Source: Tagaea sp.
GTDB taxonomy: Bacteria; Pseudomonadota; Alphaproteobacteria; CACIAM-22H2
Direction of reading: 5' to 3'
DNA: 64,000 nucleotides
NCBI GenBank assembly: GCA_965279525.1
Contig: CBDIIB010000005.1
Coordinates: forward strand, 96,001 to 160,000
Shown: piece by piece, positions 6,760-44,579 of the stretch
Position numbering within the stretch: the first letter of the stretch is position 1
Layout of the letters: every line of letters begins with the position of its first letter
Notes under the pieces: generated by a model
The model's input: the letters and a program-made list of their open reading frames with translations, nothing else
Told to the model about the DNA's origin: nothing
Databases searched by the model: none
Position numbers and translations under genes: made by a program

Positions 6760-7842
6760 CTAGCGCTTCCTCTTCAGATACGTCACATGCCCCATCTTGC
6801 GGCCGGGCCTTGCTTGGGCCTTGCCGTAGAGATGCAGGATCGCGCGTTTGTTGGCGAGCAGCTTCGGCACCGCATCGACGTCGTCGCCGATCAGGTTCTT
6901 CATCGTCGCATCCGAGTGGCGGGCAGGATCGCCCAGCGGCAGGCCTGCGATCGCGCGCGCGAGCTGGTCGAACTGGCTGGCCGGGCACGCATCGATGGTC
7001 CAATGGCCGGAATTGTGCGGGCGGGGGGCGAGCTCGTTGACGAGCAGTTCGCCCTTGCGCGTGCGGAACATCTCGACCGCCAGCACGCCGACGAGGCCGA
7101 GCCGGTCCGCGATATGCAGCGTCATTTCTTCCGCCTCGCGGCGCAGGGCGAGCGGCAGTTTCGCGGGTGCGATGGTCACGTCGAGGATGTGGTGCTTGTG
7201 GCGGTTCTCGACCGGCACGTAGCACGCCGCCCCCGAAACGCCGCGTGCCACCACGACCGACAGCTCGCTGCGGAAATCGACGAAGCCTTCGAGGATGCCC
7301 GGCGTGCCCTTCAGCACCGCGAACGCGGCGGCAAGATCGTCGCGCGGGCCGATCTTGACCTGGCCCTTGCCGTCATAGCCCATGCGCGCGGTCTTGAGCA
7401 CGCACGGCCGGCCCATCGCCGCCACCCCGCGCTCGAGATCGCGCAGCGTGCGCACGCTTGTCCAGGGTGCGGTCGAAACGCCGATGCGGTTGAGGAAGGA
7501 TTTTTCGAGGATGCGGTCCTGACAGGTCGCCAGCACCTTGGCCGACGGATAGAGCGGCGCATGCCCCGCTTTCGCGACGGCGGCGACACCCTCGACCGGG
7601 ATGTTCTCGAACTCGTACGTCACCACGTCGCACGCCTTGAAGAATCCGGTCAGCGCCTTGACGTCGCGATAATCGGCGACGGTCGCGGCCGTGCACACCT
7701 GTTCGGCCGGCGAATCCTTCTCCGGACCGAAGCAGTGCGTGCGAAAGCCGAGGCGGGCGGCGGCAAGCGCGGTCATCCGGCCGAGCTGGCCGTTGCCGAG
7801 GATGCCGATCGTCGAACCGGGGGGCAGGCGGCGCACGTTCAC
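6760..7842 (-). CDS. purK: N5-carboxyaminoimidazole ribonucleotide synthase
   Basis: [12 protein letters not shown]; GYDGKGQ; [12 protein letters not shown]; RPGRKMGH; GTG start overlaps the purE stop (GTGA). Confidence 0.96.
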
Positions 7843-8363
7843 CGGCGGGCCTTCTTCTTCGCCGGAATCGCAGGCGCGTCGACCGGCTTTTGCGCGATCT
7901 TCGCGGTCTGTGCCGCCCGGAACGCATCCAGCGCCTTGGCGACCTTCGCGTCGGAGAGCGCCACCACCGCGGCGGCCAGAAGCCCCGCGTTCGTCGCCCC
8001 TGCCTTGCCGATGGCGAGCGTGCCCACCGGGATGCCGGCGGGCATCTGCACGATCGATAGCAGCGAATCGAGGCCCTTCAGCGTGCGCGATTCGACCGGG
8101 ACGCCGAATACCGGCAGGCGCGTCATCGCCGCCGCCATGCCCGGCAGGTGGGCGGCACCGCCCGCCCCCGCCACGATGCAGGCAAGGCCGCGTCCGGCGG
8201 CTTTCGTCGCATATTGGTAAAGCCGCTCGGGCGTGCGATGCGCCGACACGATGCGCGTTTCGAACGCCACGCCGAGTTCGCGCAGCTTTTCGGCCGTATG
8301 GCGCATGGTTTCCCAGTCCGACTGGCTGCCCATGATGATGCCGACGAGGGGCTTTTTCGCCAT
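7839..8363 (-). CDS. purE: N5-CAIR mutase
   Basis: IIMGSQSDW; SAHRTP; [12 protein letters not shown]; [11 protein letters not shown]. Confidence 0.97.
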
Positions 8364-8541
8364 GTAACGCGCTCTCCAGAGAAGCCGGCCGGGGCCGGAA
8401 AGGGGCGGAGTATAGGCGAGGCGCTCGCGGCACGGAAAGGGGCGGCACGCCTGCGCATTCACCCCCCAAAATCCGGGCCCCCAAATTCCGGCCGGTCTGT
8501 GCTATGGCTCGTCGCGAGAACGTATCCCGTTCCGGTACCGG

Positions 8542-9294
8542 ATGAAGATCGGCGACACGAACCGCATCATCGGCCCAGCGACCACCGCACCCGTGCGCAA
8601 GACGGATGCGCCCGGCCGCGCGCAGGGCCCTTCGCCGGCACCCATGTCGGGCGGCATGCGCACGCCCAAGGACATCGCCCAGGTTATGGGCATCCCCGAG
8701 GCCGAGTTCACGCCCAAGGTCCGCGACGCGATCATGCGGCTGATGGCGGAAGTCGACAAGGCGCGGCGCGAGGCGGCCCAGGCCCAGTCGCGCGCGGCCC
8801 ATCTCGAACGGCTCGCCGACCAGGACAGCCTCGTGCCCGTCTTCAACCGCCGCGCCTTCGTGCGCGAGCTCGGGCGCATGCAGGCCTTCGCCGAACGCTA
8901 CGACCAGCCTTCGAGCCTCGTCTATTTCGACGCCAATGGCCTCAAGCAGGTCAACGACACGCACGGCCATGCGGCGGGCGATGCACTTCTGGCGCACATC
9001 GCGCGCGTGCTCGTGCAGAACGTGCGCGACACCGACGTGGTCGGACGGCTGGGCGGCGACGAGTTCGGCATCATCCTCACCTATACCGACAAGCCGGTGG
9101 CCGACGAGAAGGCGGCCCTGCTCGCCCAGCGCGTGCAGGAGAGCGAGCTCGACTGGCGCGGCGTGGCGATCAAGCCGTCGGTCGCGTGGGGCGTCTACAC
9201 GTTCCGCGGCGGAGACGACATCGCGCGGCTGCTGGAAAGCGCCGACCGCGAGATGTACGAGCGCAAGAAAAGCGCGCGCACGCCCGCACCCTGA
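8542..9294 (+). CDS. GGDEF diguanylate cyclase with N-terminal coiled coil
   Basis: DSLVPVFNRR; KQVNDTHGHAAGD; RDTD I-site; RLGGDEF. Confidence 0.93.
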   Translation: MKIGDTNRIIGPATTAPVRKTDAPGRAQGPSPAPMSGGMRTPKDIAQVMGIPEAEFTPKVRDAIMRLMAEVDKARREAAQAQSRAAHLERLADQDSLVPVFNRRAFVRELGRMQAFAERYDQPSSLVYFDANGLKQVNDTHGHAAGDALLAHIARVLVQNVRDTDVVGRLGGDEFGIILTYTDKPVADEKAALLAQRVQESELDWRGVAIKPSVAWGVYTFRGGDDIARLLESADREMYERKKSARTPAP

Positions 9295-28878: not shown

Positions 28879-29097
28879 CCGCAATCCGATCGGCCGGCAT
28901 CCGCCAGCCGGATATCGCATGATTAAGGCTCGCGATTAATCGGTGCGGTGTCTAGATACCGGCGGGTATAAATCTGTGGATACAACCTAAAAAACCCCGA
29001 CGCTTCTCTGATGCGGCCTTCCGCGTTTTCGGGATTACATATAATATCACCCATGGGTGAAGCTTTTCTGGAACACCATCCTTAGTGGAGCACCTTC

Positions 29098-31230
29098 ATG
29101 AAGGCCGCTAATGCATTGAAAGCACTAGCACTATCTTCAGTTGTTCTCGGATGTTCCTACGACGTCGACATCAATGGCCGTAAGGAAGATCCGGACCAGG
29201 CAGCGACACTGGACTATGACGGCCTGCGGCAGGCGCCCGGCCTCGGCTGGTATGAGCTGTCGCAAGGATGGAATTCCGAACTCCGGCGCGCTTTCTGGTT
29301 CACGCCGCAAGGATCGGCGCTCATCCCTTACAAGTGGTTCCTGAATCTCGAGATGCCGAAACGGAACTGCGAGGGGAAATCCGACGCGGCGCTGAACAAG
29401 GGGAACTGGACCTATTTCCGGGATTCGGGCCATCTGCGCAGCCTCGGATTCATCCCCGCTTCCTCGGATCCCGTCTGGAATCCGGACGGGTTGCCCATCG
29501 GATTCGCCAAGTCGAGCACGCGAGAGGATGGTGAATTCCTGGGCCCCACTTGCGCCGCCTGCCACACGAATCTGATGCATCTGAAAGGCCGGAAGGTCCT
29601 CGTCGAAGGCGCACCCACACTTGCCGACATCCAGGGCCTGAATATCGGTCTGGCGAATGCGCTCTGCTCGATGGACGAAACGATGGTCGACAAGAACTTG
29701 CCGGATGCAGAATCCCGGAAGGCCGCGGCGAAAGCCCAGTTCAAGACATTCGCGGAAAAGGTGCTTGCCGGCGATCCGAAGGCGACCGGTGCCGAACCCT
29801 TCGCGAAGCTTCAGGAGGAGCTCTTCGCGAAGGTCCAGGAGCAGCGCGGCAGGATCATGGTCCGCAATGCGCGGAACTATTCGAACCTGAGCATCTATCC
29901 GCACTACGGCCGGGGCCGCCTCGACGCGGTCGGCGCCATCCTGAATGAAGCCGCGGTGGAAATCGCGAACCATGAAGACAACATCGTGCCCGCCAACGCG
30001 CCGGTGAGCTATCCCTTCCTCTGGGGAACGTCCCAGTCCGATGTCGTCCAGTGGAACGGATTCGCCCCCAATCAGTTCTTCGGCTTTGGCCCGCTCGGCC
30101 GGAACGCCGGCGAAGTCGTTGGCGTTTACGGATATCTGGACGCATTTCCGGAAAAAGTGGTCGAGGCGCAGAAACTGGAACTCCTCCGGAAACTGAAAGA
30201 CCTCAATTTTCTGCCTCCGGGGACTCCGGATGTGTCCAAAATCGATGGACCGTCGGATCGCAGTCTCACGACGACACTGACGGTCGATGACTTGAGGAAA
30301 TTCGCGCCGAAGGAAGTCGTCGAGGACGTAAACAGGCAGTCGCCTTTCCATCCGCTGCTGACCACGAGTGGATCGGCGCAGTTCGGTGGAATCGACTCGT
30401 CGATCCTGCTGAAGAATCTAGGCTCGATCGAACACTGGGTAGGCAAACTGCTCTCGCCGAAATGGCCGGCGGATGTATTGGGAAAAATCGATCCGGAAAA
30501 ATCCGGCCGGGGCAGGGAAATTTACGAGAATGCCTGCGCCAGCTGCCACCAGATCGTCGAGCGCCGCGATCAGCACAAGGCATACTTCGCGAAAATGGTC
30601 CGGATACCGGAAGTCGGAACCGATCCGGCAATGGCGGAGAACTTCCTGCTCGAGAGGCATCCGTCGACTGGCAAGCCCTGGAAAACGGGCTTCTTCAAAG
30701 ACACGAAAATCGGCTTTCCCTGGGAAGGCCGCTTCGGCGAGAACTTCACGGTCAGGGGCGAGGCGCTGACCGCCATCGTCTTCGACGTGATCCTCGGCAA
30801 ACTGCTGCCCGACGGGATTTCCGGCGCGATCCGCAGTCGGTCCGTCTCCGAGGAAAATCCGGCAACCAGTGCCGGCGGCGACAGGCTCTACCGCTACAAG
30901 GCGCGGCCGCTCAACGGAATCTGGGCAACGGCGCCGTATCTGCATAACGGGTCGGTGCCCAATCTTGCGCAGCTCCTGATGCCTGAAGCGGAACGGGACA
31001 AGATCTTCTGTGTCGGAAGCCGGGAATTCGACCCGGACGTCGTCGGCTTCGTCTCGAAGATCGGCCCGGACGGAAAATGCATCGACGTCGAGGACTACGC
31101 CATGCCGCTCGATACTTCCTATTTCGGAAGCTCGAACAGGGGCCATCACTATGGCGTCGAACTGGACAAGGACAAGGACAAGAACAGAGCCATGAAGGCC
31201 GACCTGCTTGAGTTCCTGAAAACACTCTAG
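29098..31230 (+). CDS. Di-heme c-type cytochrome lipoprotein, RoxA/MauG-like
   Basis: Lipobox VLGC; CAACH and CASCH; GRLDAVG; YKARPLNGIWATAPYLHNGSVP. Confidence 0.85.
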   Translation: MKAANALKALALSSVVLGCSYDVDINGRKEDPDQAATLDYDGLRQAPGLGWYELSQGWNSELRRAFWFTPQGSALIPYKWFLNLEMPKRNCEGKSDAALNKGNWTYFRDSGHLRSLGFIPASSDPVWNPDGLPIGFAKSSTREDGEFLGPTCAACHTNLMHLKGRKVLVEGAPTLADIQGLNIGLANALCSMDETMVDKNLPDAESRKAAAKAQFKTFAEKVLAGDPKATGAEPFAKLQEELFAKVQEQRGRIMVRNARNYSNLSIYPHYGRGRLDAVGAILNEAAVEIANHEDNIVPANAPVSYPFLWGTSQSDVVQWNGFAPNQFFGFGPLGRNAGEVVGVYGYLDAFPEKVVEAQKLELLRKLKDLNFLPPGTPDVSKIDGPSDRSLTTTLTVDDLRKFAPKEVVEDVNRQSPFHPLLTTSGSAQFGGIDSSILLKNLGSIEHWVGKLLSPKWPADVLGKIDPEKSGRGREIYENACASCHQIVERRDQHKAYFAKMVRIPEVGTDPAMAENFLLERHPSTGKPWKTGFFKDTKIGFPWEGRFGENFTVRGEALTAIVFDVILGKLLPDGISGAIRSRSVSEENPATSAGGDRLYRYKARPLNGIWATAPYLHNGSVPNLAQLLMPEAERDKIFCVGSREFDPDVVGFVSKIGPDGKCIDVEDYAMPLDTSYFGSSNRGHHYGVELDKDKDKNRAMKADLLEFLKTL

Positions 31231-38679: not shown

Positions 38680-39260
38680 CGCTTTGCTTTACGGCCTCGG
38701 GGACCGGCCGTTACGCCGGTAGCCCTTCGGCCCGCCCGCGGCACAAACGCTCGGGCGGATCGTGCCGATATCGCCGTCGGGCGGGGCGGGGTCTTGCCGC
38801 AAGGGCGGCTTCGGGGGGTTCGGCATCGCGATCCCGGGTCCCGGAAATCCGCAGCTGTGACGAGACGCCCGATCCGTCCGCGAAAGGCAGCGTCGGCGGC
38901 GCTTGACGTCCATCTTGTGCGCCGGCCTGAAGAAAATCGGATAGGACCGGTGCTTACTGGCTCTTCGGTGGAGTCATGTCGTTTTCGGACACCTCCCCGT
39001 TCGGGTTGCCGATCCGTTTTGCGTCCCTGCCCCGCGACCTCGTGGAGGAGCGTGCGGCGCCGGGGCGCCCGGCCGTCATCGGCGGCCGGTGTCGAATGCG
39101 GATGGATCGGCTTCGCACGCGACAGGAAGACGCTAGCACGAAATCGCGCCCGTTTGGAGTCCGGCGATTCGGAATTTTAGATATATATAGTGTTTATTAT
39201 TAACCGTGCGGCGTCACACGGGACTCACAATTTTTAAGCATCACGTACTACAATGAGAGG

Positions 39261-39647
39261 ATGCTTCCGCGCCTCTGCGTCCTGCTCCTGGCCCTGTGCG
39301 TCCTTGCCGGCGAAACGCATGCGCGGCCCGACTGCCGCGCCATCGACGGCGACACGATCGCGTGCGGCAAGCAGCACGTGCGCATCGTCAATGTCGATAC
39401 GCCGGAGCTGGGTGCGGGTGCGCGCTGCCCGGCCGAAGCGGCCCTCGCCGAACGCGCGCGCCGCTTCACCGCCGAGCAGATCGCCGGCACGAATGTCGAG
39501 ATCCGCCCCGACCCGAAGCGCCCGCACGACCGCTGGGGCCGCACGCTCGCGCGCGTCATCGTCGACGGAATCGATCTTGGCGAAGCGCTGGTCGCCGCCG
39601 GCCTCGCGCGCGCATGGGACGGCAGGCGCCGGCCGTGGTGCCCCTAA
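39261..39647 (+). CDS. Thermonuclease (SNase-like) family secreted protein
   Basis: Signal peptide; IDGDT; VRIVNVDTPE; DRWGRTLA; WDGRRRPWC. Confidence 0.88.
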   Translation: MLPRLCVLLLALCVLAGETHARPDCRAIDGDTIACGKQHVRIVNVDTPELGAGARCPAEAALAERARRFTAEQIAGTNVEIRPDPKRPHDRWGRTLARVIVDGIDLGEALVAAGLARAWDGRRRPWCP

Positions 39648-39653
39648 GCCCCG

Positions 39654-39731
39654 TCAGCGCCAGAAGATGATGATCAGGATCACGATCGGAAGCGGGATGC
39701 CGAGGAGCCAGAGAAGTACGCCGCGTCCCAT
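39654..39731 (-). CDS. 25-aa single-pass membrane microprotein (absent from the ORF track)
   Basis: MGRGVLLWLLGIPLPIVILIIIFWR*; SD AGGAG 8 nt upstream. Confidence 0.75.
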   Translation of the reverse strand: MGRGVLLWLLGIPLPIVILIIIFWR

Positions 39732-39842
39732 GATTTCGACTCCTGCTGCCTGAATTCGTCCGCCGGAAAATCGGCGTCGGCATCTGGTAGCAGGGAGCGG
39801 CGGGGCCGGAGAGGCCCGGAAACTACGCAGGCCGCGCGGCGA

Positions 39843-40235
39843 TCAGTAATAGGCGTCGCCGGTCAGGCGTTGCGAGATCCACCAGATGTTTCCGGCACCG
39901 TCGCGCACGCCGCCCTGCCGGTCGCCATAGGGCATGTCGCCGACCGCCATTTCGAGACGCGCGCCGGCGGCAAGGGCGCGGCGCATCGTCGCGTCCGCGT
40001 CGGCGACATAAAGATAGTAGGCCGCCGCCATCGCCGGATAGGCGGGCGTGGCGCCGCTGACCATGAAGTTCGAAGCGCCGATCGCGATCTGGGCGTTGGC
40101 GAGGCTGCCGTCCGGCCGGGCGGTCCGTCCGACCGTGACCGCACCGAACGCCCGTTCGAGGAACGCGATGAACGCGTCGGGATCGGCGACGAAGAAATAC
40201 GGGACCACGCTGGCGAAGCCGGGCGGAGCCGTCAT
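39843..40235 (-). CDS. VOC/glyoxalase (PhnB-like) protein
   Basis: VVPYFFV; YLYVADADA; DMPYGDRQGGVRDGAGNIWWI. Confidence 0.9.
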   Translation of the reverse strand: MTAPPGFASVVPYFFVADPDAFIAFLERAFGAVTVGRTARPDGSLANAQIAIGASNFMVSGATPAYPAMAAAYYLYVADADATMRRALAAGARLEMAVGDMPYGDRQGGVRDGAGNIWWISQRLTGDAYY

Positions 40236-40253
40236 CGCGATTCAAGCCGGCAG

Positions 40254-40307
40254 GAGGAAAATGGCGCGCCCGAAGAGATTCGAACTCCTAACCCTCAGAT
40301 CCGTAGT
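40254..40307 (-). repeat. attR-like 54-bp direct repeat (3' part of tRNA-Arg plus 8 nt of trailer)
   Basis: Identical to 44495-44548: GAGGAAAATGGCGCGCCCGAAGAGATTCGAACTCCTAACCCTCAGATCCGTAGT. Confidence 0.97.
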
Positions 40308-40352
40308 TGATGTATTGGCATTGTTTCGGCGTTTCAGACCATTCGCCAAACG

Positions 40353-40715
40353 TCAACTAAGCCGATATTCGTACGACAAGGGCGAAAGCCGCTCGTCTTC
40401 GATTGCTCATACCCAACGTATATCGATGTCGGCACCAATGGCCGATGGCGTTTCGCCGTCGTGCCTCAAATCAATGTCGGTGACTAGAAAGTGTACGTTC
40501 TGGGAGTCGCGTTCACCATGTACGCGGACCTTATAGCGAGTGAGAATGATCGCAGCACTGGAGGTAGTCGTGCCCTTGACCTATGCAATAGCGATATTTC
40601 CATCTCTTGATAACTCAAGATCGTATGGCTTTTGCAATTTGACATCCCTTACATCGAAGCTCTGCTCCCTAAAGAAATCGACGACTAGAGCCCTTGCGCG
40701 CACCTCAACTGATAG
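40353..40715 (-). pseudogene. DUF3883/NOV-C-type PD-(D/E)xK nuclease remnant
   Basis: Minus frame LSVEVRARALVVDFFREQSFDVRDVKLQKPYDLELSRDGNIAIA*VKGTTTSSAAIILTR...WV*AIEDERLSPLSYEY; stops at 40583-40581 and 40409-40407; no start codon context. Confidence 0.7.
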
Positions 40716-40716
40716 A

Positions 40717-41589
40717 TTAGTTCTCGACTTCTCGTCGTAGCTGCCCCTTCACTCGATCACACACCATCAACAATTCATCTCTGTGATCGGGATAAAGCGC
40801 TTCGCGATCAACCATTGGGAAGTTGACACTGTTTTCCCAAAACTCACTTTTCCTAAATTTAAACTTCGCCACTAGCCGGCGACCGAAATCTACTTCGTAG
40901 TGGGAATACAGCTGCTTTTGGAGGAACTCTCCGAGCTCGGGATATTCCCCCAGTAGATATCCTTCCTGAAAGTGAGGGCGCAGTGCTTGGGGTGGACATA
41001 CGCCGGCAAGCCTAACAATTTGCAAACCGGCCTCGGCACTAGCTGTAACCACCCCACTCAAATTTGGGACACCTACAACAAAGATATAGCCATTTTTGTT
41101 GTCGCTATCGGAAGCAAACGACGCAGCGATCCGCAGTGAATGGGTCACATCCAGCAAGGGCGTTCTGCAAACTTCATAGTGCTGCAGGATTGACCATCTA
41201 AGAATTCGTTGTCTCTGCAAAAGTTTGAGGCCCGGAAAGCCATGAGTCTCGTACTTCGAAACAAGTTCAACCTCCGCTTCTGCCAAAATTGAAAAGCGGT
41301 CTTGCAATCGTGTTCCGCTCGGATTCAGGCCAATCCCCTTTCGTGGCCGAAATATCGTGGGCTTTAAAGTGGTACGGCCGCGTTGGTTGCGGAAATCATG
41401 ATTTTGGCCCCGATAAAGAAGCAGATAATCTCGATTTCTGAATTGTAATTCCGCAACCTTCTCTACCAACTCAGCGAACGAGCTAACAAACGCCGCTTTA
41501 CTTTCCCGTATTTCCAAACATTGCGCCTTGGCGATTTTGTCTTTGCGCCCGATAAACGTCCAAAGACTTTGATTACCAATTGTTTCCAT
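40717..41589 (-). CDS. FRG domain protein
   Basis: LLYRGQ; LKPTIFR; LQHYEVCRTPLLDVTHSLRIAASFA; RPHFQEG. Confidence 0.9.
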   Translation of the reverse strand: METIGNQSLWTFIGRKDKIAKAQCLEIRESKAAFVSSFAELVEKVAELQFRNRDYLLLYRGQNHDFRNQRGRTTLKPTIFRPRKGIGLNPSGTRLQDRFSILAEAEVELVSKYETHGFPGLKLLQRQRILRWSILQHYEVCRTPLLDVTHSLRIAASFASDSDNKNGYIFVVGVPNLSGVVTASAEAGLQIVRLAGVCPPQALRPHFQEGYLLGEYPELGEFLQKQLYSHYEVDFGRRLVAKFKFRKSEFWENSVNFPMVDREALYPDHRDELLMVCDRVKGQLRREVEN

Positions 41590-41828
41590 TTTTCTTACTC
41601 AACTGGAGGCTTGTCGTCTCTAGACTACAATCGTGTTTATATCTTTAAATGTCCCGCGGTTCAGCACGAAGCAATGTCGGCATTGGGTCGTTCCATATCT
41701 CCAAGAAAATAGATTCTACAAACACTCTCTCGAAGGATCGAGCGTATCAGCGAACGCCGCACAAATAAGCCCGCATTCGCCCCTCCAAATTGGCCAGAAT
41801 TTCCATTGGTCATATTCAAAATTATCGA

Positions 41829-44156
41829 TCACTGCCTCTCCCGAAGAGCGGAGAACATGCCACGAATGTCGTCGTCACTCATTTCGACGTTGGTATCCAC
41901 ACCGCGACTCTCAATGCGCCCGTCATCATCGCCATAGTCGGGTATCTCGTTTTGCGCGATTTCTTCATCGAGGCGTTGCAACTCATAATCAAGGCTTAAA
42001 TCAAATTCATTTGCCAGATCTTCCAGTGTGCTTTTAAGGGCGTGCATTTCATCTAACCCAGAGACACTATCGATATCTGCGAGTGCCCCTTGTCGTTGAA
42101 ATTCTTCAACCTGTGACTCTAGTTCTTTTTTCACCTCGTCGTTGGTAACCCCGGAGTCTCTATAGAAGCGAAGAAAGTTCAGCACATAGTCTGAGCTTGC
42201 ACTTTCTATTTCCGAGACGGCCTTAAGCAAATATGCATTGAGCAATTCACTCTTGATTGGAGGATCCATTTTTGTTTCGCCGTGAATCGCCTCGAGCACA
42301 TCGAGCAATCCGCCCTGATCAACGGCATGCTTGTCCCACTTTTGGATAAGGTACCTAGCGCAATCTATGGCTATCTCAAGGTACTTCTGATCCTTGAGAT
42401 GGGCCGCTACCTCAAAAAGGAAATCGACTTTCTCTTCGTAAGTATTGTCGACATGAATGTGTACTGTTGCCCCGGTAGAGGTTGTGCTTTTTGCGAGATT
42501 CGTTTTTCTAAACAGCTTTTCGATTACCTCGACGAAGCTAGACGGGGCGGTTTCGACGGACCGACGCAAGTGGCTATCGCCGTGCTGCAAGGCCAATCGG
42601 TAGAGGTTGACAATTTGTTTAAATCGAACGGCTGTACAAACTAGATCTTCGAAAGACTCGTTACCCTGCAAAAACAATTTTGAGATGAATTCTCGGATTG
42701 ACGGGCTCAGAAATTCGACTTGGTAGCGGCCATAGCGAAAGAAACCTCCATCAAGTTCTTTCAAGGCGTCCTGAAAGTCGTTGGCGGCCGTCGGAAAATT
42801 ATGTTTCTTCGACAAATGGCGATAATACCCGTCAAACACCGAACGCAATTCGGCGGCGGTTGCGCTTCCGAGTGAGTAGTAAACGAGAAGAGCATAGCGA
42901 GATGCGGTTGATATCTGCCGCCTATATGCGTGGGTCCAAATCTCTTCCGGATTGTCTAATAGCTTCTCGATGTATGCAGGATACTCAGCGGGCGGAACGC
43001 TATGCACCCTGTGCAGAGAACTAAGCCACTCTATTTGCCGAGGACTAAAATGCTCATGCGCAATAATCTTCAAAAAGAAATCATTCTGTAGAACGGCATT
43101 TCTATACTCCGGCGGCAGATCGCTGAAAAAAAGGTGATTAAATAAAATCTTGGCCCGCTGACCACGGGTATAATCTTCTAAGTTCAACACACATCGAGCG
43201 TCGATTATCTGACTGTGCGCGAATCGCTCGGAAAACTGGCGGGCACCCTGTAAAATGTGTTCTCTCGTAGTCAGCAGAAATCGTGAATGCTTTGAAGTTT
43301 TCACCATTTCCATAAACGAGATAATTTCGGAATCTTGATTGCGGCCGAAATACTCTGGTCGGTCACCTAAAAAGGTATGCCCCAAAAAATCATCAAAATA
43401 GAATATGCGTTTTGCATCAGGTTGAAATAGTCGCTTTCCCTCCACAATTTCGCCGGTAATAGCTACCGGCTCGTATCCGTTTGCCAAGTACTCAAACATT
43501 AAAATTTCAGCCAAAGTTGTCTTTCCGATCCCAGGGGGGCCAGAAATTACGACAACCTTCTCGCGATCAAGAATGTCCAGCGCGCGGGGCAAGGCACGAT
43601 TTTCTACAAATAGCGGCAACTTCCGCTTGATCCGCTCCACTTCAAATCGTGTCTGACAGATTTCAGCATTGTGCAGAGCTCGCTCGAGTACAAGCGAGCT
43701 CGTCAGCCATAGCTTTAAATGTCGTCGTTCAACATTCTCGTGCCGCGCAAGCAAAGAACCGATATCGTCGGAGCCATAAATGTCTTGCTCCGATTGAATG
43801 AATGGCGAGAGCGCTTTCAGAATCTTCGATTTGTTTAGTGCTGACAGAGAGACCGATGTAAAGACGACGTACCTGGTTGGTGCCAACTTTTTTATCTTTG
43901 GTAGTTCTATCTTTGACAAGTCGCGAAGCAATTTGTCGAAGCCTGATCCTAAGTAGTGCTTACATTGGATTATCGTGACCGACGGACTTGCACCACGGCG
44001 CTCTGATTTTGAATGCTTGGCATATCTAAGATCGATTCCTTGATCTCGGCCGACACGGAATGCTTCGATTGTGACACCCCACTCAGACTGAAGGAGATCT
44101 CGCGCTAATTCCTCTAAGTCGATTGGTGACAATTGAGCTAGGTCATACTTTGGCAT
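41829..44156 (-). CDS. Mrr-like restriction endonuclease fused to an nSTAND3-type STAND NTPase
   Basis: N-terminal LSPIDLEELARDLL...GRDQGIDLR...IIQCKHY; Walker A GPPGIGKT; Walker B FYFDDFLG; LLTTRE; FSPRQIE; LDNPEEIW; helical acidic C-terminus. Confidence 0.88.
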   Translation of the reverse strand: MPKYDLAQLSPIDLEELARDLLQSEWGVTIEAFRVGRDQGIDLRYAKHSKSERRGASPSVTIIQCKHYLGSGFDKLLRDLSKIELPKIKKLAPTRYVVFTSVSLSALNKSKILKALSPFIQSEQDIYGSDDIGSLLARHENVERRHLKLWLTSSLVLERALHNAEICQTRFEVERIKRKLPLFVENRALPRALDILDREKVVVISGPPGIGKTTLAEILMFEYLANGYEPVAITGEIVEGKRLFQPDAKRIFYFDDFLGHTFLGDRPEYFGRNQDSEIISFMEMVKTSKHSRFLLTTREHILQGARQFSERFAHSQIIDARCVLNLEDYTRGQRAKILFNHLFFSDLPPEYRNAVLQNDFFLKIIAHEHFSPRQIEWLSSLHRVHSVPPAEYPAYIEKLLDNPEEIWTHAYRRQISTASRYALLVYYSLGSATAAELRSVFDGYYRHLSKKHNFPTAANDFQDALKELDGGFFRYGRYQVEFLSPSIREFISKLFLQGNESFEDLVCTAVRFKQIVNLYRLALQHGDSHLRRSVETAPSSFVEVIEKLFRKTNLAKSTTSTGATVHIHVDNTYEEKVDFLFEVAAHLKDQKYLEIAIDCARYLIQKWDKHAVDQGGLLDVLEAIHGETKMDPPIKSELLNAYLLKAVSEIESASSDYVLNFLRFYRDSGVTNDEVKKELESQVEEFQRQGALADIDSVSGLDEMHALKSTLEDLANEFDLSLDYELQRLDEEIAQNEIPDYGDDDGRIESRGVDTNVEMSDDDIRGMFSALRERQ

Positions 44157-44502
44157 TTGCAGCCACTTTCGTCCCAACAGTGTTTAGGCTAGTGCCAATA
44201 GATCAATACCCTGCGAGAGCTTCCATTTTTGAGGAGGTGGAGCCTCTGCATTTCAAATAATGATTGTAAAATCCGCCTCAAGTCCAGACGCTACTGAAAA
44301 ACAACAGTATGTGTGACAGGCACCCTCAAATCAGACTCGCCTGAACCTGTAAGCGCTTAAAGTCTCGCGACTCGAGGCGCTCCAGCCAGCACCAGCGGAA
44401 TTTAAGTATGGAATTGATCAACAACCGCGGAAAAGCGTGGTTGCATCCTGGTTGCTCGCAAGCCGGCCACCAGTAGGAAGCTTGCTAAGCTACTGAGGAA
44501 AA

Positions 44503-44579
44503 TGGCGCGCCCGAAGAGATTCGAACTCCTAACCCTCAGATCCGTAGTCTGATGCTCTATCCAGTTGAGCTACGGGCGC
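44503..44579 (-). tRNA. tRNA-Arg(ACG)
   Basis: GCGCCCGTAGCTCAACTGGATAGAGCATCAGACTACGGATCTGAGGGTTAGGAGTTCGAATCTCTTCGGGCGCGCCA; 77 nt, anticodon ACG, encoded CCA. Confidence 0.98.

Follow-up and report, generated by a model that had tools for sequence, protein, structure and literature searches.

The subject of this work is a small island at tRNA-Arg(ACG) within a 64,000-nt stretch of the genome of a Tagaea sp. (assembly GCA_965279525.1, contig CBDIIB010000005.1, positions 96,001 to 160,000; hereafter the window). The island, 4,187 bp at positions 40308-44494, is an islet of a known kind: it lacks an integrase, is bounded by attachment (att) sites in the manner of a cis-mobilizable element (CIME), carries defence-candidate cargo and lies in a region that varies between species. 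We favour, at a probability of roughly 0.55, the reading that it is a CIME-type remnant of a larger tyrosine-integrase element which had inserted at the anticodon-loop sublocation of the tRNA gene, with its cargo left intact.

The boundaries of the island are set by a 54-bp direct repeat, of which repeat finding and DNA search recover two copies without a mismatch in the window, at 40254-40307 and 44495-44548. As the bases flanking the two copies differ, the repeat is exactly 54 bp long, and none of 100 dinucleotide shuffles produced two matches to the 54-mer. The intact tRNA-Arg(ACG), the integration target and the single tRNA of the window, occupies 44503-44579 on the minus strand (ARAGORN; 65.2 bits with the Rfam tRNA model). 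In the orientation of the tRNA, position 32 of the gene is the first base of the repeat, which takes in the anticodon (35-37) and continues through the encoded CCA and 8 nt beyond. The proximal copy on the minus strand comprises the 8 nt downstream of the tRNA and tRNA positions 32-77 within the intact gene, while the distal copy, on the same strand, is a displaced tRNA-Arg 3' fragment (positions 32-77) plus 8 nt, with 19 bp between it and the start codon of the neighbouring VOC gene and a match to the proximal copy at 54 of 54 positions. In the literature consulted, an att type that spans the tRNA from its anticodon loop as far as the CCA is reported for tyrosine integrases with crossover in the anticodon loop, their attP carrying the remaining part of the tRNA. 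A first-pass annotation, made from the sequence alone, had reported the perfect repeat from the anticodon loop to 8 nt past the CCA and had taken the duplicated 3' half as a tyrosine-integrase signature; repeat search and tRNA mapping bear out the former, and the geometry fits the anticodon-loop sublocation as published in the sources consulted.

The sharp fall in GC content between the copies, likewise reported at first pass, amounts to 47.5% in the island compared with 68.0% in the rest of the window, with sharp edges in a scan of 400-bp windows. The GC content at third codon positions (GC3) is 0.48 and 0.50 in the two intact island genes versus 0.76-0.93 in host genes and, together with the overall GC difference and the absence of the island from all 17 related loci examined below, supports a foreign origin. 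The three features of the island, two intact genes and one gene relic, are all encoded on the minus strand like the tRNA, in line with the co-orientation that had been pointed out before.

The stretches outside the two intact genes measure 409, 239 and 317 bp and are too small to leave room for an integrase gene. The 317-bp stretch, the tRNA-proximal non-coding arm at 44178-44494, is the usual place for such a gene and holds no ORF with a Pfam match. None of the 64 stop-to-stop island frames of at least 35 aa matched Pfam at E≤0.001, and integrase, relaxase and transposase domains were found neither in these frames and the two genes nor in 40 scanned window ORFs, picked from the 97 ORFs of at least 220 aa outside the two island genes. 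The claim of the first-pass annotation that the interval is devoid of integrase, relaxase and transposase therefore holds for the island. When the stop-to-stop frames of both arms and of the whole island were compared with Pfam for integrase remnants, only the nuclease relic described next turned up. The two island arms share a single 10-mer as a potential arm-type repeat of a recombinase, and shuffled arms share up to 4. Scans for promoters (2 sites, 4.4 expected) and terminators (6 sites, 4.9 expected) were uninformative. Against plasmids, only the tRNA half of the island DNA found matches (7 records at 90-94% identity), and the 54-mer matched 14 phage records at 80-93%, which represent phage tRNA genes or att sites, none of them close. 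Elsewhere the window has the gene content of an ordinary chromosome: pntAB, purK, a CcrM-like methylase, photolyase, acrB, ggt, rnpA and yidC.

The third feature of the island is a relic of a type IV-restriction-like nuclease gene at 40413-40712 (minus strand), recognised by homology of its read-through translation. By this homology it is the last approximately 100 codons of an MrcB_N-NOV_C gene that has lost approximately 220 N-terminal codons; it is cut off right at the stop codon of the adjoining FRG gene and is interrupted by a TAG in frame (40581-40583) at the place of a conserved glutamate, the E of an 'EVK' motif in the best relative. Translated with X at the stop codon, the relic aligns with residues 221-320 of P0362, a protein of 339 aa, at 58% identity (E 1.1e-28), and 292 library proteins match it at E≤0.001, mostly via their C-termini. 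Among seven relatives whose domains were scanned, P0362, P0367 and P0368 combine MrcB_N with NOV_C, P0369 combines EVE with NOV_C and three have NOV_C alone; the Pfam NOV_C match of the relic itself (E 0.0018) falls below the cut-off. The earlier description of the interval as holding only defence-like genes did not include the relic; both intact genes belong to defence-candidate families.

The lack of recombination and transfer genes, in combination with one truncated gene, characterises the island as a non-autonomous, att-bounded islet of CIME type, and as the truncated nuclease gene indicates that deletion acted inside the island, a stranded remnant is favoured. In the parts of the literature consulted, CIMEs are defined for streptococcal remnants left by integrative and conjugative elements (ICEs) or by integrative and mobilizable elements (IMEs) as flanked by attL and attR and devoid of integration or transfer genes (PMC5704250, PMC10201445). 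The Tagaea islet has attL and attR sites of site-specific integration in the form of the perfect 54-bp repeat with one copy inside the intact tRNA, and the Pfam scan of the 64 frames and two genes shows no integration, recombination or conjugation genes; as in CIMEs as described there, the att sites stem from integration at the 3' end of the target gene and the cargo has been kept. In contrast to CIMEs, no related ICE or IME is known for the islet, so that we infer its derivation by decay, its host is an alphaproteobacterium while CIME hosts are Firmicutes, and its cargo consists of defence candidates.

Islander, according to the part of the source consulted, uses a regenerated tRNA and a displaced fragment as marks of island ends (PMC4383910). 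Islands of this type resemble the islet in the intact regenerated tRNA, in the displaced 3' fragment as direct repeat, both of which form its ends, and in foreign composition, but the islet is very small at 4.2 kb and does not contain the defining integrase gene, and is consequently not filed as an Islander-type member. As an ICEfinder survey of 23,213 chromosomes, as far as its consulted text goes, reported zero CIMEs (PMC10201445), standard tools readily overlook islets of this kind. As seen here, candidate immune genes can be carried intact by small islets with att boundaries and no integrase, which finders that require an integrase would miss.

If the favoured reading is correct, a foreign element would have entered tRNA-Arg(ACG) through recombination by a tyrosine integrase at the anticodon loop, as the repeat geometry suggests. 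The tRNA 3' half carried by the element would have rebuilt the gene and the original 3' half would have been displaced by 4.2 kb to its present position beside the VOC gene; as a side effect, the co-oriented VOC gene would now stand 4.2 kb from the tRNA it once followed. Deletions, whether after arrival in this lineage or before it in the donor, would have stripped the larger element down to the islet. The un-ameliorated GC content and the identity of the repeats at 54 of 54 positions point to a recent acquisition.

Several observations weigh against such a decay. No fragment of an integrase pseudogene occurs in the 317-bp or 409-bp arms, so that a prior integrase is a presumption, no integrase-bearing relative of the element was found, and the ORFs scanned beside the tRNA in 15 relatives encode no integrase. 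Perfect repeats leave little time for decay, although a single deletion would suffice. A second islet, in locus L003 of a related species, is in the same state, at the same site and with the same boundary, and two independent decays are less economical than one shared trans-acting recombinase; the island DNA next to the core is identical at 12 of 15 positions between the two islets. In addition, the defence role of both intact genes, as judged from sequence, is founded on candidate families.

The second islet emerged from a comparison of the locus in related species. A contig scan anchored on the 414-aa lipoprotein gene 5' of the tRNA returned 17 loci (given L numbers here), all from metagenome-assembled genomes of the Tagaea group, Rhodospirillales, of which 9 are titled Tagaea sp. 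and 8 have other names (Azospirillum, Telmatospirillum, Rhodospirillaceae, Asaia etc.). As the anchor protein is 77-93% identical across the 17 loci, the comparison is one between species, not strains. In every one of them tRNA-Arg(ACG) is found in the same place and orientation beside the anchor gene, while homologues of the FRG, PDC-S73 (that is, Mrr_cat-nSTAND3) and VOC proteins are absent within the locus from all 17. The first-pass annotation had regarded the presence of the 4.2-kb segment in syntenic position in all relatives as the finding that would speak against an insertion; the island is missing throughout.

Sequence on the island side is missing from two loci, so that the informative relatives number 15. 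In these, the distance from the last block shared with the left flank of the window to the tRNA ranges from 244 bp to >9.5 kb. The near-empty group comprises L017 (244 bp), L002 (358 bp), L010 (367 bp) and L016 (675 bp); other cargo of 2.7-6.4 kb is present in L009 (2,705 bp), L005 (2,720 bp), L003 (4,286 bp), L008 (4,976 bp) and L006 (6,361 bp); the left anchor is distant or missing from the locus in L014 (8,576 bp), L011 (8,950 bp), L015 and L001 (both >9.5 kb), and L004 and L012 are cut by the contig end. The cargo of the relatives is mostly ordinary and of native GC content, with ABC and MFS transporters, IclR/MarR/HxlR regulators, CopCD and oxidoreductases. An alignment of the locus had been proposed as a search for empty sites or swapped cargo: swapped cargo is seen in the relatives, but an exact VOC-tRNA empty site is not, the VOC gene being absent from all 17.

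The islet of L003 (7587-9619) measures 1,933 bp with 57.4% GC versus 67.3% and is bounded by a second copy of the 3' part of the tRNA, identical at 49 of 50 nt and comprising tRNA positions 31-77 plus 3 nt. It encodes a single lipoprotein-like ORF of approximately 396 aa (7768-9126, minus strand) with no match in Pfam, PADLOC or PHROG, and frame scans revealed no integrase or integrase remnant in it. The last approximately 15 nt of the 317-bp arm of the window and the DNA at the same position of the L003 islet agree at 12 of 15 nt; over 30 nt, the comparison of these two arms ties for the best of 171 pairs, and none of 2000 shuffles reached its score. A similar short motif follows the tRNA in the near-empty L017, and the approximately 15-nt motif may, on these sequences, be native tRNA-downstream sequence that is carried along by elements.

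These findings raise the possibility, to which we attach limited credence, that the cassette never had an integrase and that a tyrosine integrase whose gene resides elsewhere in the genome, or on a visiting element, inserts, excises and exchanges small att-bounded units at tRNA-Arg. Such mobilisation in trans would explain why two species each have an integrase-less, repeat-bounded islet at this tRNA, their cargo unrelated and their boundaries falling at tRNA position 32 (window) and 31 (L003), why neither islet has an integrase remnant and why both repeats are perfect or nearly so; the resemblance of the approximately 15 nt of island DNA next to the core, and of the 30-nt comparison, fits with it, as does L012 with a different defence candidate directly beside the same tRNA. 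Tandems of a CIME and an ICE are, in the text consulted, reported to transfer together (PMC5704250), and a system of this kind would resemble integron cassettes or CIME accretion. On the other hand, neither the 40 window ORFs nor the scanned ORFs next to the tRNA of the relatives yielded an integrase, the search comprising the window and these loci, the two arms of the island have no arm-type repeats in common beyond the one 10-mer, and the arms of the two islets are unlike beyond approximately 25 nt. The motif in L017 may be native sequence and not an element site, and the truncated nuclease gene means that the island is not a clean cassette. In the relatives, 75 greedy ORFs from the cargo of 15 loci and 131 frames of at least 90 aa from the proximal 1.5-2.8 kb of 11 were scanned, none with a Phage_integrase domain; homology of the arms to the loci of the relatives was also absent (blastn, nothing below E 0.05).

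An extended form of this explanation, which we consider unlikely, would make tRNA-Arg(ACG) a docking site in this Rhodospirillales group for a family of integrase-less att-bounded units exchanged by a trans-acting recombinase, with the approximately 15-25 nt beside the core as the recognition arm. The family would include the defence pair of the window, the 1.9-kb unit of L003 and perhaps the PDC-M01 unit of L012. If trans-mobilisation took place, it would amount to a mechanism of cassette exchange at tRNA genes, an integron-like cassette economy.

The islet might also have arrived already without an integrase, by homologous recombination following transformation, transduction or conjugative transfer from a related strain, with the tRNA and the flank as homology arms. 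The arms for such an event exist: 7 of 17 relatives share the exact tRNA-Arg(ACG) sequence of the window, and in the closer relatives the right flank agrees at 79-90%. Diverged versions of the two proteins (96% and 90% identity), probably encoded on one 7,291-bp contig of another sample, imply that the two-gene unit circulates. However, the VOC gene of the left flank is absent from all 17 relatives, and among the 120 listed VOC homologues none is on the 7,291-bp contig. Decidedly unlikely as the route of entry, homologous recombination would moreover account for the transfer and not for the origin of the repeat, and therefore supplements both decay from a larger element and mobilisation in trans. 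Very improbable, finally, is an assembly artefact in which the assembler routed the chromosome through a circular or foreign 4.2-kb sequence that has the 54-bp tRNA segment in common with it: graph assembly of a loop at an exact repeat held in common does give the same layout and the relatives are metagenome-assembled genomes, but the repeat ends at the biologically meaningful anticodon loop and not at an arbitrary place, the independent L003 assembly has the same architecture with one mismatch between the copies, which collapse of k-mers would not give, and the proteins of the window are recorded on a 1,869,079-bp contig. An ordinary remnant left by decay, in a part of the chromosome that varies, is the more probable account of the islet.

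With respect to its cargo, the gene next to the tRNA-proximal arm (41829-44177, minus strand) is intact and encodes an Mrr_cat nuclease domain, an nSTAND3 NTPase domain and a helical C-terminal domain in a protein of 782 aa from TTG at 44177, or 775 aa from ATG at 44156. Pfam assigns nSTAND3 to residues 190-351 (8.3e-47) and Mrr_cat to residues 14-77 (4.1e-8), and the PADLOC profile PDC-S73 matches full-length (2.1e-155; residues 8-775 on model positions 1-749 of 752). In an alignment of 38 sequences, the window protein and 37 homologues of 42-96% identity, D49, Q71-x-K73, G216-K219-T221 and D262-D263 are invariant; we take D49 and Q71-x-K73 to be the nuclease motif, G216-K219-T221 the Walker A and D262-D263 the Walker B motif. 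In the AlphaFold model (pLDDT 80) residues of approximately 352-779 are mostly helical, and among PDB structures its fold comes closest to EfAvs5, Avs4, Avs3 and an AVAST5 filament, with Foldseek E values of 1e-8 to 1e-6, at a global TM score of only approximately 0.2.

Pfam and the model together show the order of domains that characterises Avs/AVAST proteins, with N-terminal effector, central STAND NTPase and C-terminal helical sensor, and the nSTAND3 domain is common to the island protein and Avs5. The domain is, in the text consulted, named for Avs5, which consists of SIR2, nSTAND3 and repeats (bioRxiv 10.1101/2025.07.08.663546). The island protein differs in that its effector is Mrr-type and that of Avs5 SIR2, in its size of 782 aa compared with 1534-2028 aa for the matched Avs4 and Avs3 chains, and in that its match is to the candidate family PDC-S73, with no curated Avs profile among the 9 PADLOC matches at E≤0.01. 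A PDB sequence search with the alignment of the family returned only a P-loop peptide and no Avs entry. Judged by architecture, conserved motifs and fold, sensing of a phage product by the C-terminal helical domain would lead to oligomerisation of the nSTAND3 ATPase, to DNA cleavage by the N-terminal Mrr-type nuclease and thereby to abortion of the infection.

The family is large, with 2,448 proteins at E≤1e-10 among 7,998 scored, in which the closest relative of the island protein is 96% identical and the next 47%. Homologues occur in 33 plasmid records, the best at 36.5% identity and adjoining repABC in an Agrobacterium plasmid, and the protein matched 3 of 50,697 phage records.

The second intact gene (40717-41589, minus strand) encodes a 290-aa FRG-domain protein (Pfam FRG 4.8e-9, above the cut-off). 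Of the 3,425 proteins scored, 1,657 are homologues at E≤1e-5, with relatives at 90% and 84% identity and the rest at 61% or less. The one plasmid record with a homologue, from Paracoccus at 47% identity, places it inside a type I restriction-modification operon of the order hsdR-FRG-hsdM-NucS-hsdS. The protein matched none of the 50,697 phage records, its only PHROG match is weak and of unknown function, and a PDB sequence search with its alignment found nothing. As the AlphaFold model (mean pLDDT 52.5) is too poor for a fold search, the assignment to an ADP-ribosyltransferase fold rests on the literature, where sequence analysis, in the text consulted, counts FRG among the ADP-ribosyltransferase superfamily and raises an NADase effector role as a possibility. 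The FRG protein may, following that literature, act as the second module of the islet with such an activity.

Taken as defence genes, the two intact genes are most likely independently distributed single-gene candidates, as far as sequence comparison tells: 33 plasmid records contain a homologue of the PDC-S73 protein, one contains a homologue of the FRG protein and none contains both, from which it follows that the two genes are separate modules. The 96% relative of the former and the 90% relative of the latter are each recorded on a 7,291-bp contig of the same source, and the two-gene unit thus probably exists elsewhere as a unit, likely on a single contig of this length. PDC-S73 belongs to 145 PDC systems found by 'guilt by embedding', which their authors, in the text consulted, call untested candidates (bioRxiv 10.1101/2024.01.29.577857). 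The PDC-S73 protein is a full-length member, and the Paracoccus FRG homologue is embedded in a restriction-modification operon in the way such candidates, according to that text, were found, but the island FRG protein matches the PDC-S15 models only weakly and over half its length (best E 2.4e-8, residues 30-174 of 290 in PADLOC). The earlier label 'defence-like' stands insofar as Pfam and PADLOC place both genes in families of defence candidates. As two defence candidates in a clean natural cassette, the Avs-like Mrr-nSTAND3 gene and the FRG gene are clonable as a unit.

In E. coli, according to the consulted part of a survey, 18 defence hotspots lie at tRNA loci, and at hotspot #37 a mobile element is not detectable in 68.0% of cases (PMC10121019). 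The hotspots of E. coli and Pseudomonas aeruginosa, as there described, share with the present locus the fixed site, often a tRNA, variable defence cargo and some islands without recognisable mobilisation. The Tagaea locus differs in that defence candidates are present in the window and in one of the 15 informative relatives, in that the alternative cargo is mostly ordinary and in that the variation is between species. The relative in question, L012, has a low-GC stretch (1-2712; 0.52-0.59 versus 0.66) abutting the tRNA, with matches to PDC-M01A (3e-175; PtuA-like ATPase) and PDC-M01B (5.9e-102); as its contig ends inside the cargo, the sequence stops short of the far boundary and of any repeat there. 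In L005, a Gp49-type toxin-like gene and an adjacent DUF5680 gene form a toxin-antitoxin-like pair, and the 13 other informative relatives have non-defence cargo or none. Of the 'strain-variable defence hotspot' suggested at first pass, the variability is upheld, between species, whereas a defence candidate occurs in only 1 of 15 relatives (L012) and a toxin-antitoxin-like pair in 1 of 15 (L005).

Native-GC genes on the VOC side of the island are accessory as well. None of the 17 relatives has the VOC gene (39843-40235, minus strand), and L005 alone among them has the SNase-like gene (39261-39647, plus strand); the variable region is therefore wider than the island and extends over approximately 39166-44502. 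The nearest VOC homologue, 91% identical, is on a 1,832-bp contig, and the next reach 69% at most. In L001, the closest relative, an IS5-family transposase (DUF4096 and DDE_Tnp_1 in two frames, 7809-8677) lies approximately 1 kb from the tRNA and is followed by a 250-aa ORF without a family; the last 93 bp before the tRNA have 39% GC.

The last conserved block before the variable region, at 38944-39165, comprises approximately 220 nt without a convincing ORF and is almost invariant in L002, L003, L005, L006 and L016, while its flanks diverge. RNAalifold predicts 61 pairs in this block, of which 8 show compensatory changes, three covarying pairs of a single hairpin among them; Rfam gave no match, the best being Chloroflexi-1 at E 0.64, far below threshold. 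The block is a candidate for an unannotated structured RNA or leader on either strand.

Another variable patch, the segment at approximately 46.7-50.1 kb, a few kb from the tRNA, is without counterpart in several relatives (e.g. L002 and L016), in which the flanks are joined directly, and the GC content dips sharply to approximately 0.50 at 49.8-50.4 kb. At 29000-31200 a lower GC content of 0.59 coincides with an ORF of 710 aa that has a RoxA-like cytochrome c domain, and the alignment of several relatives to the window is broken at approximately 28.9-32.6 kb.

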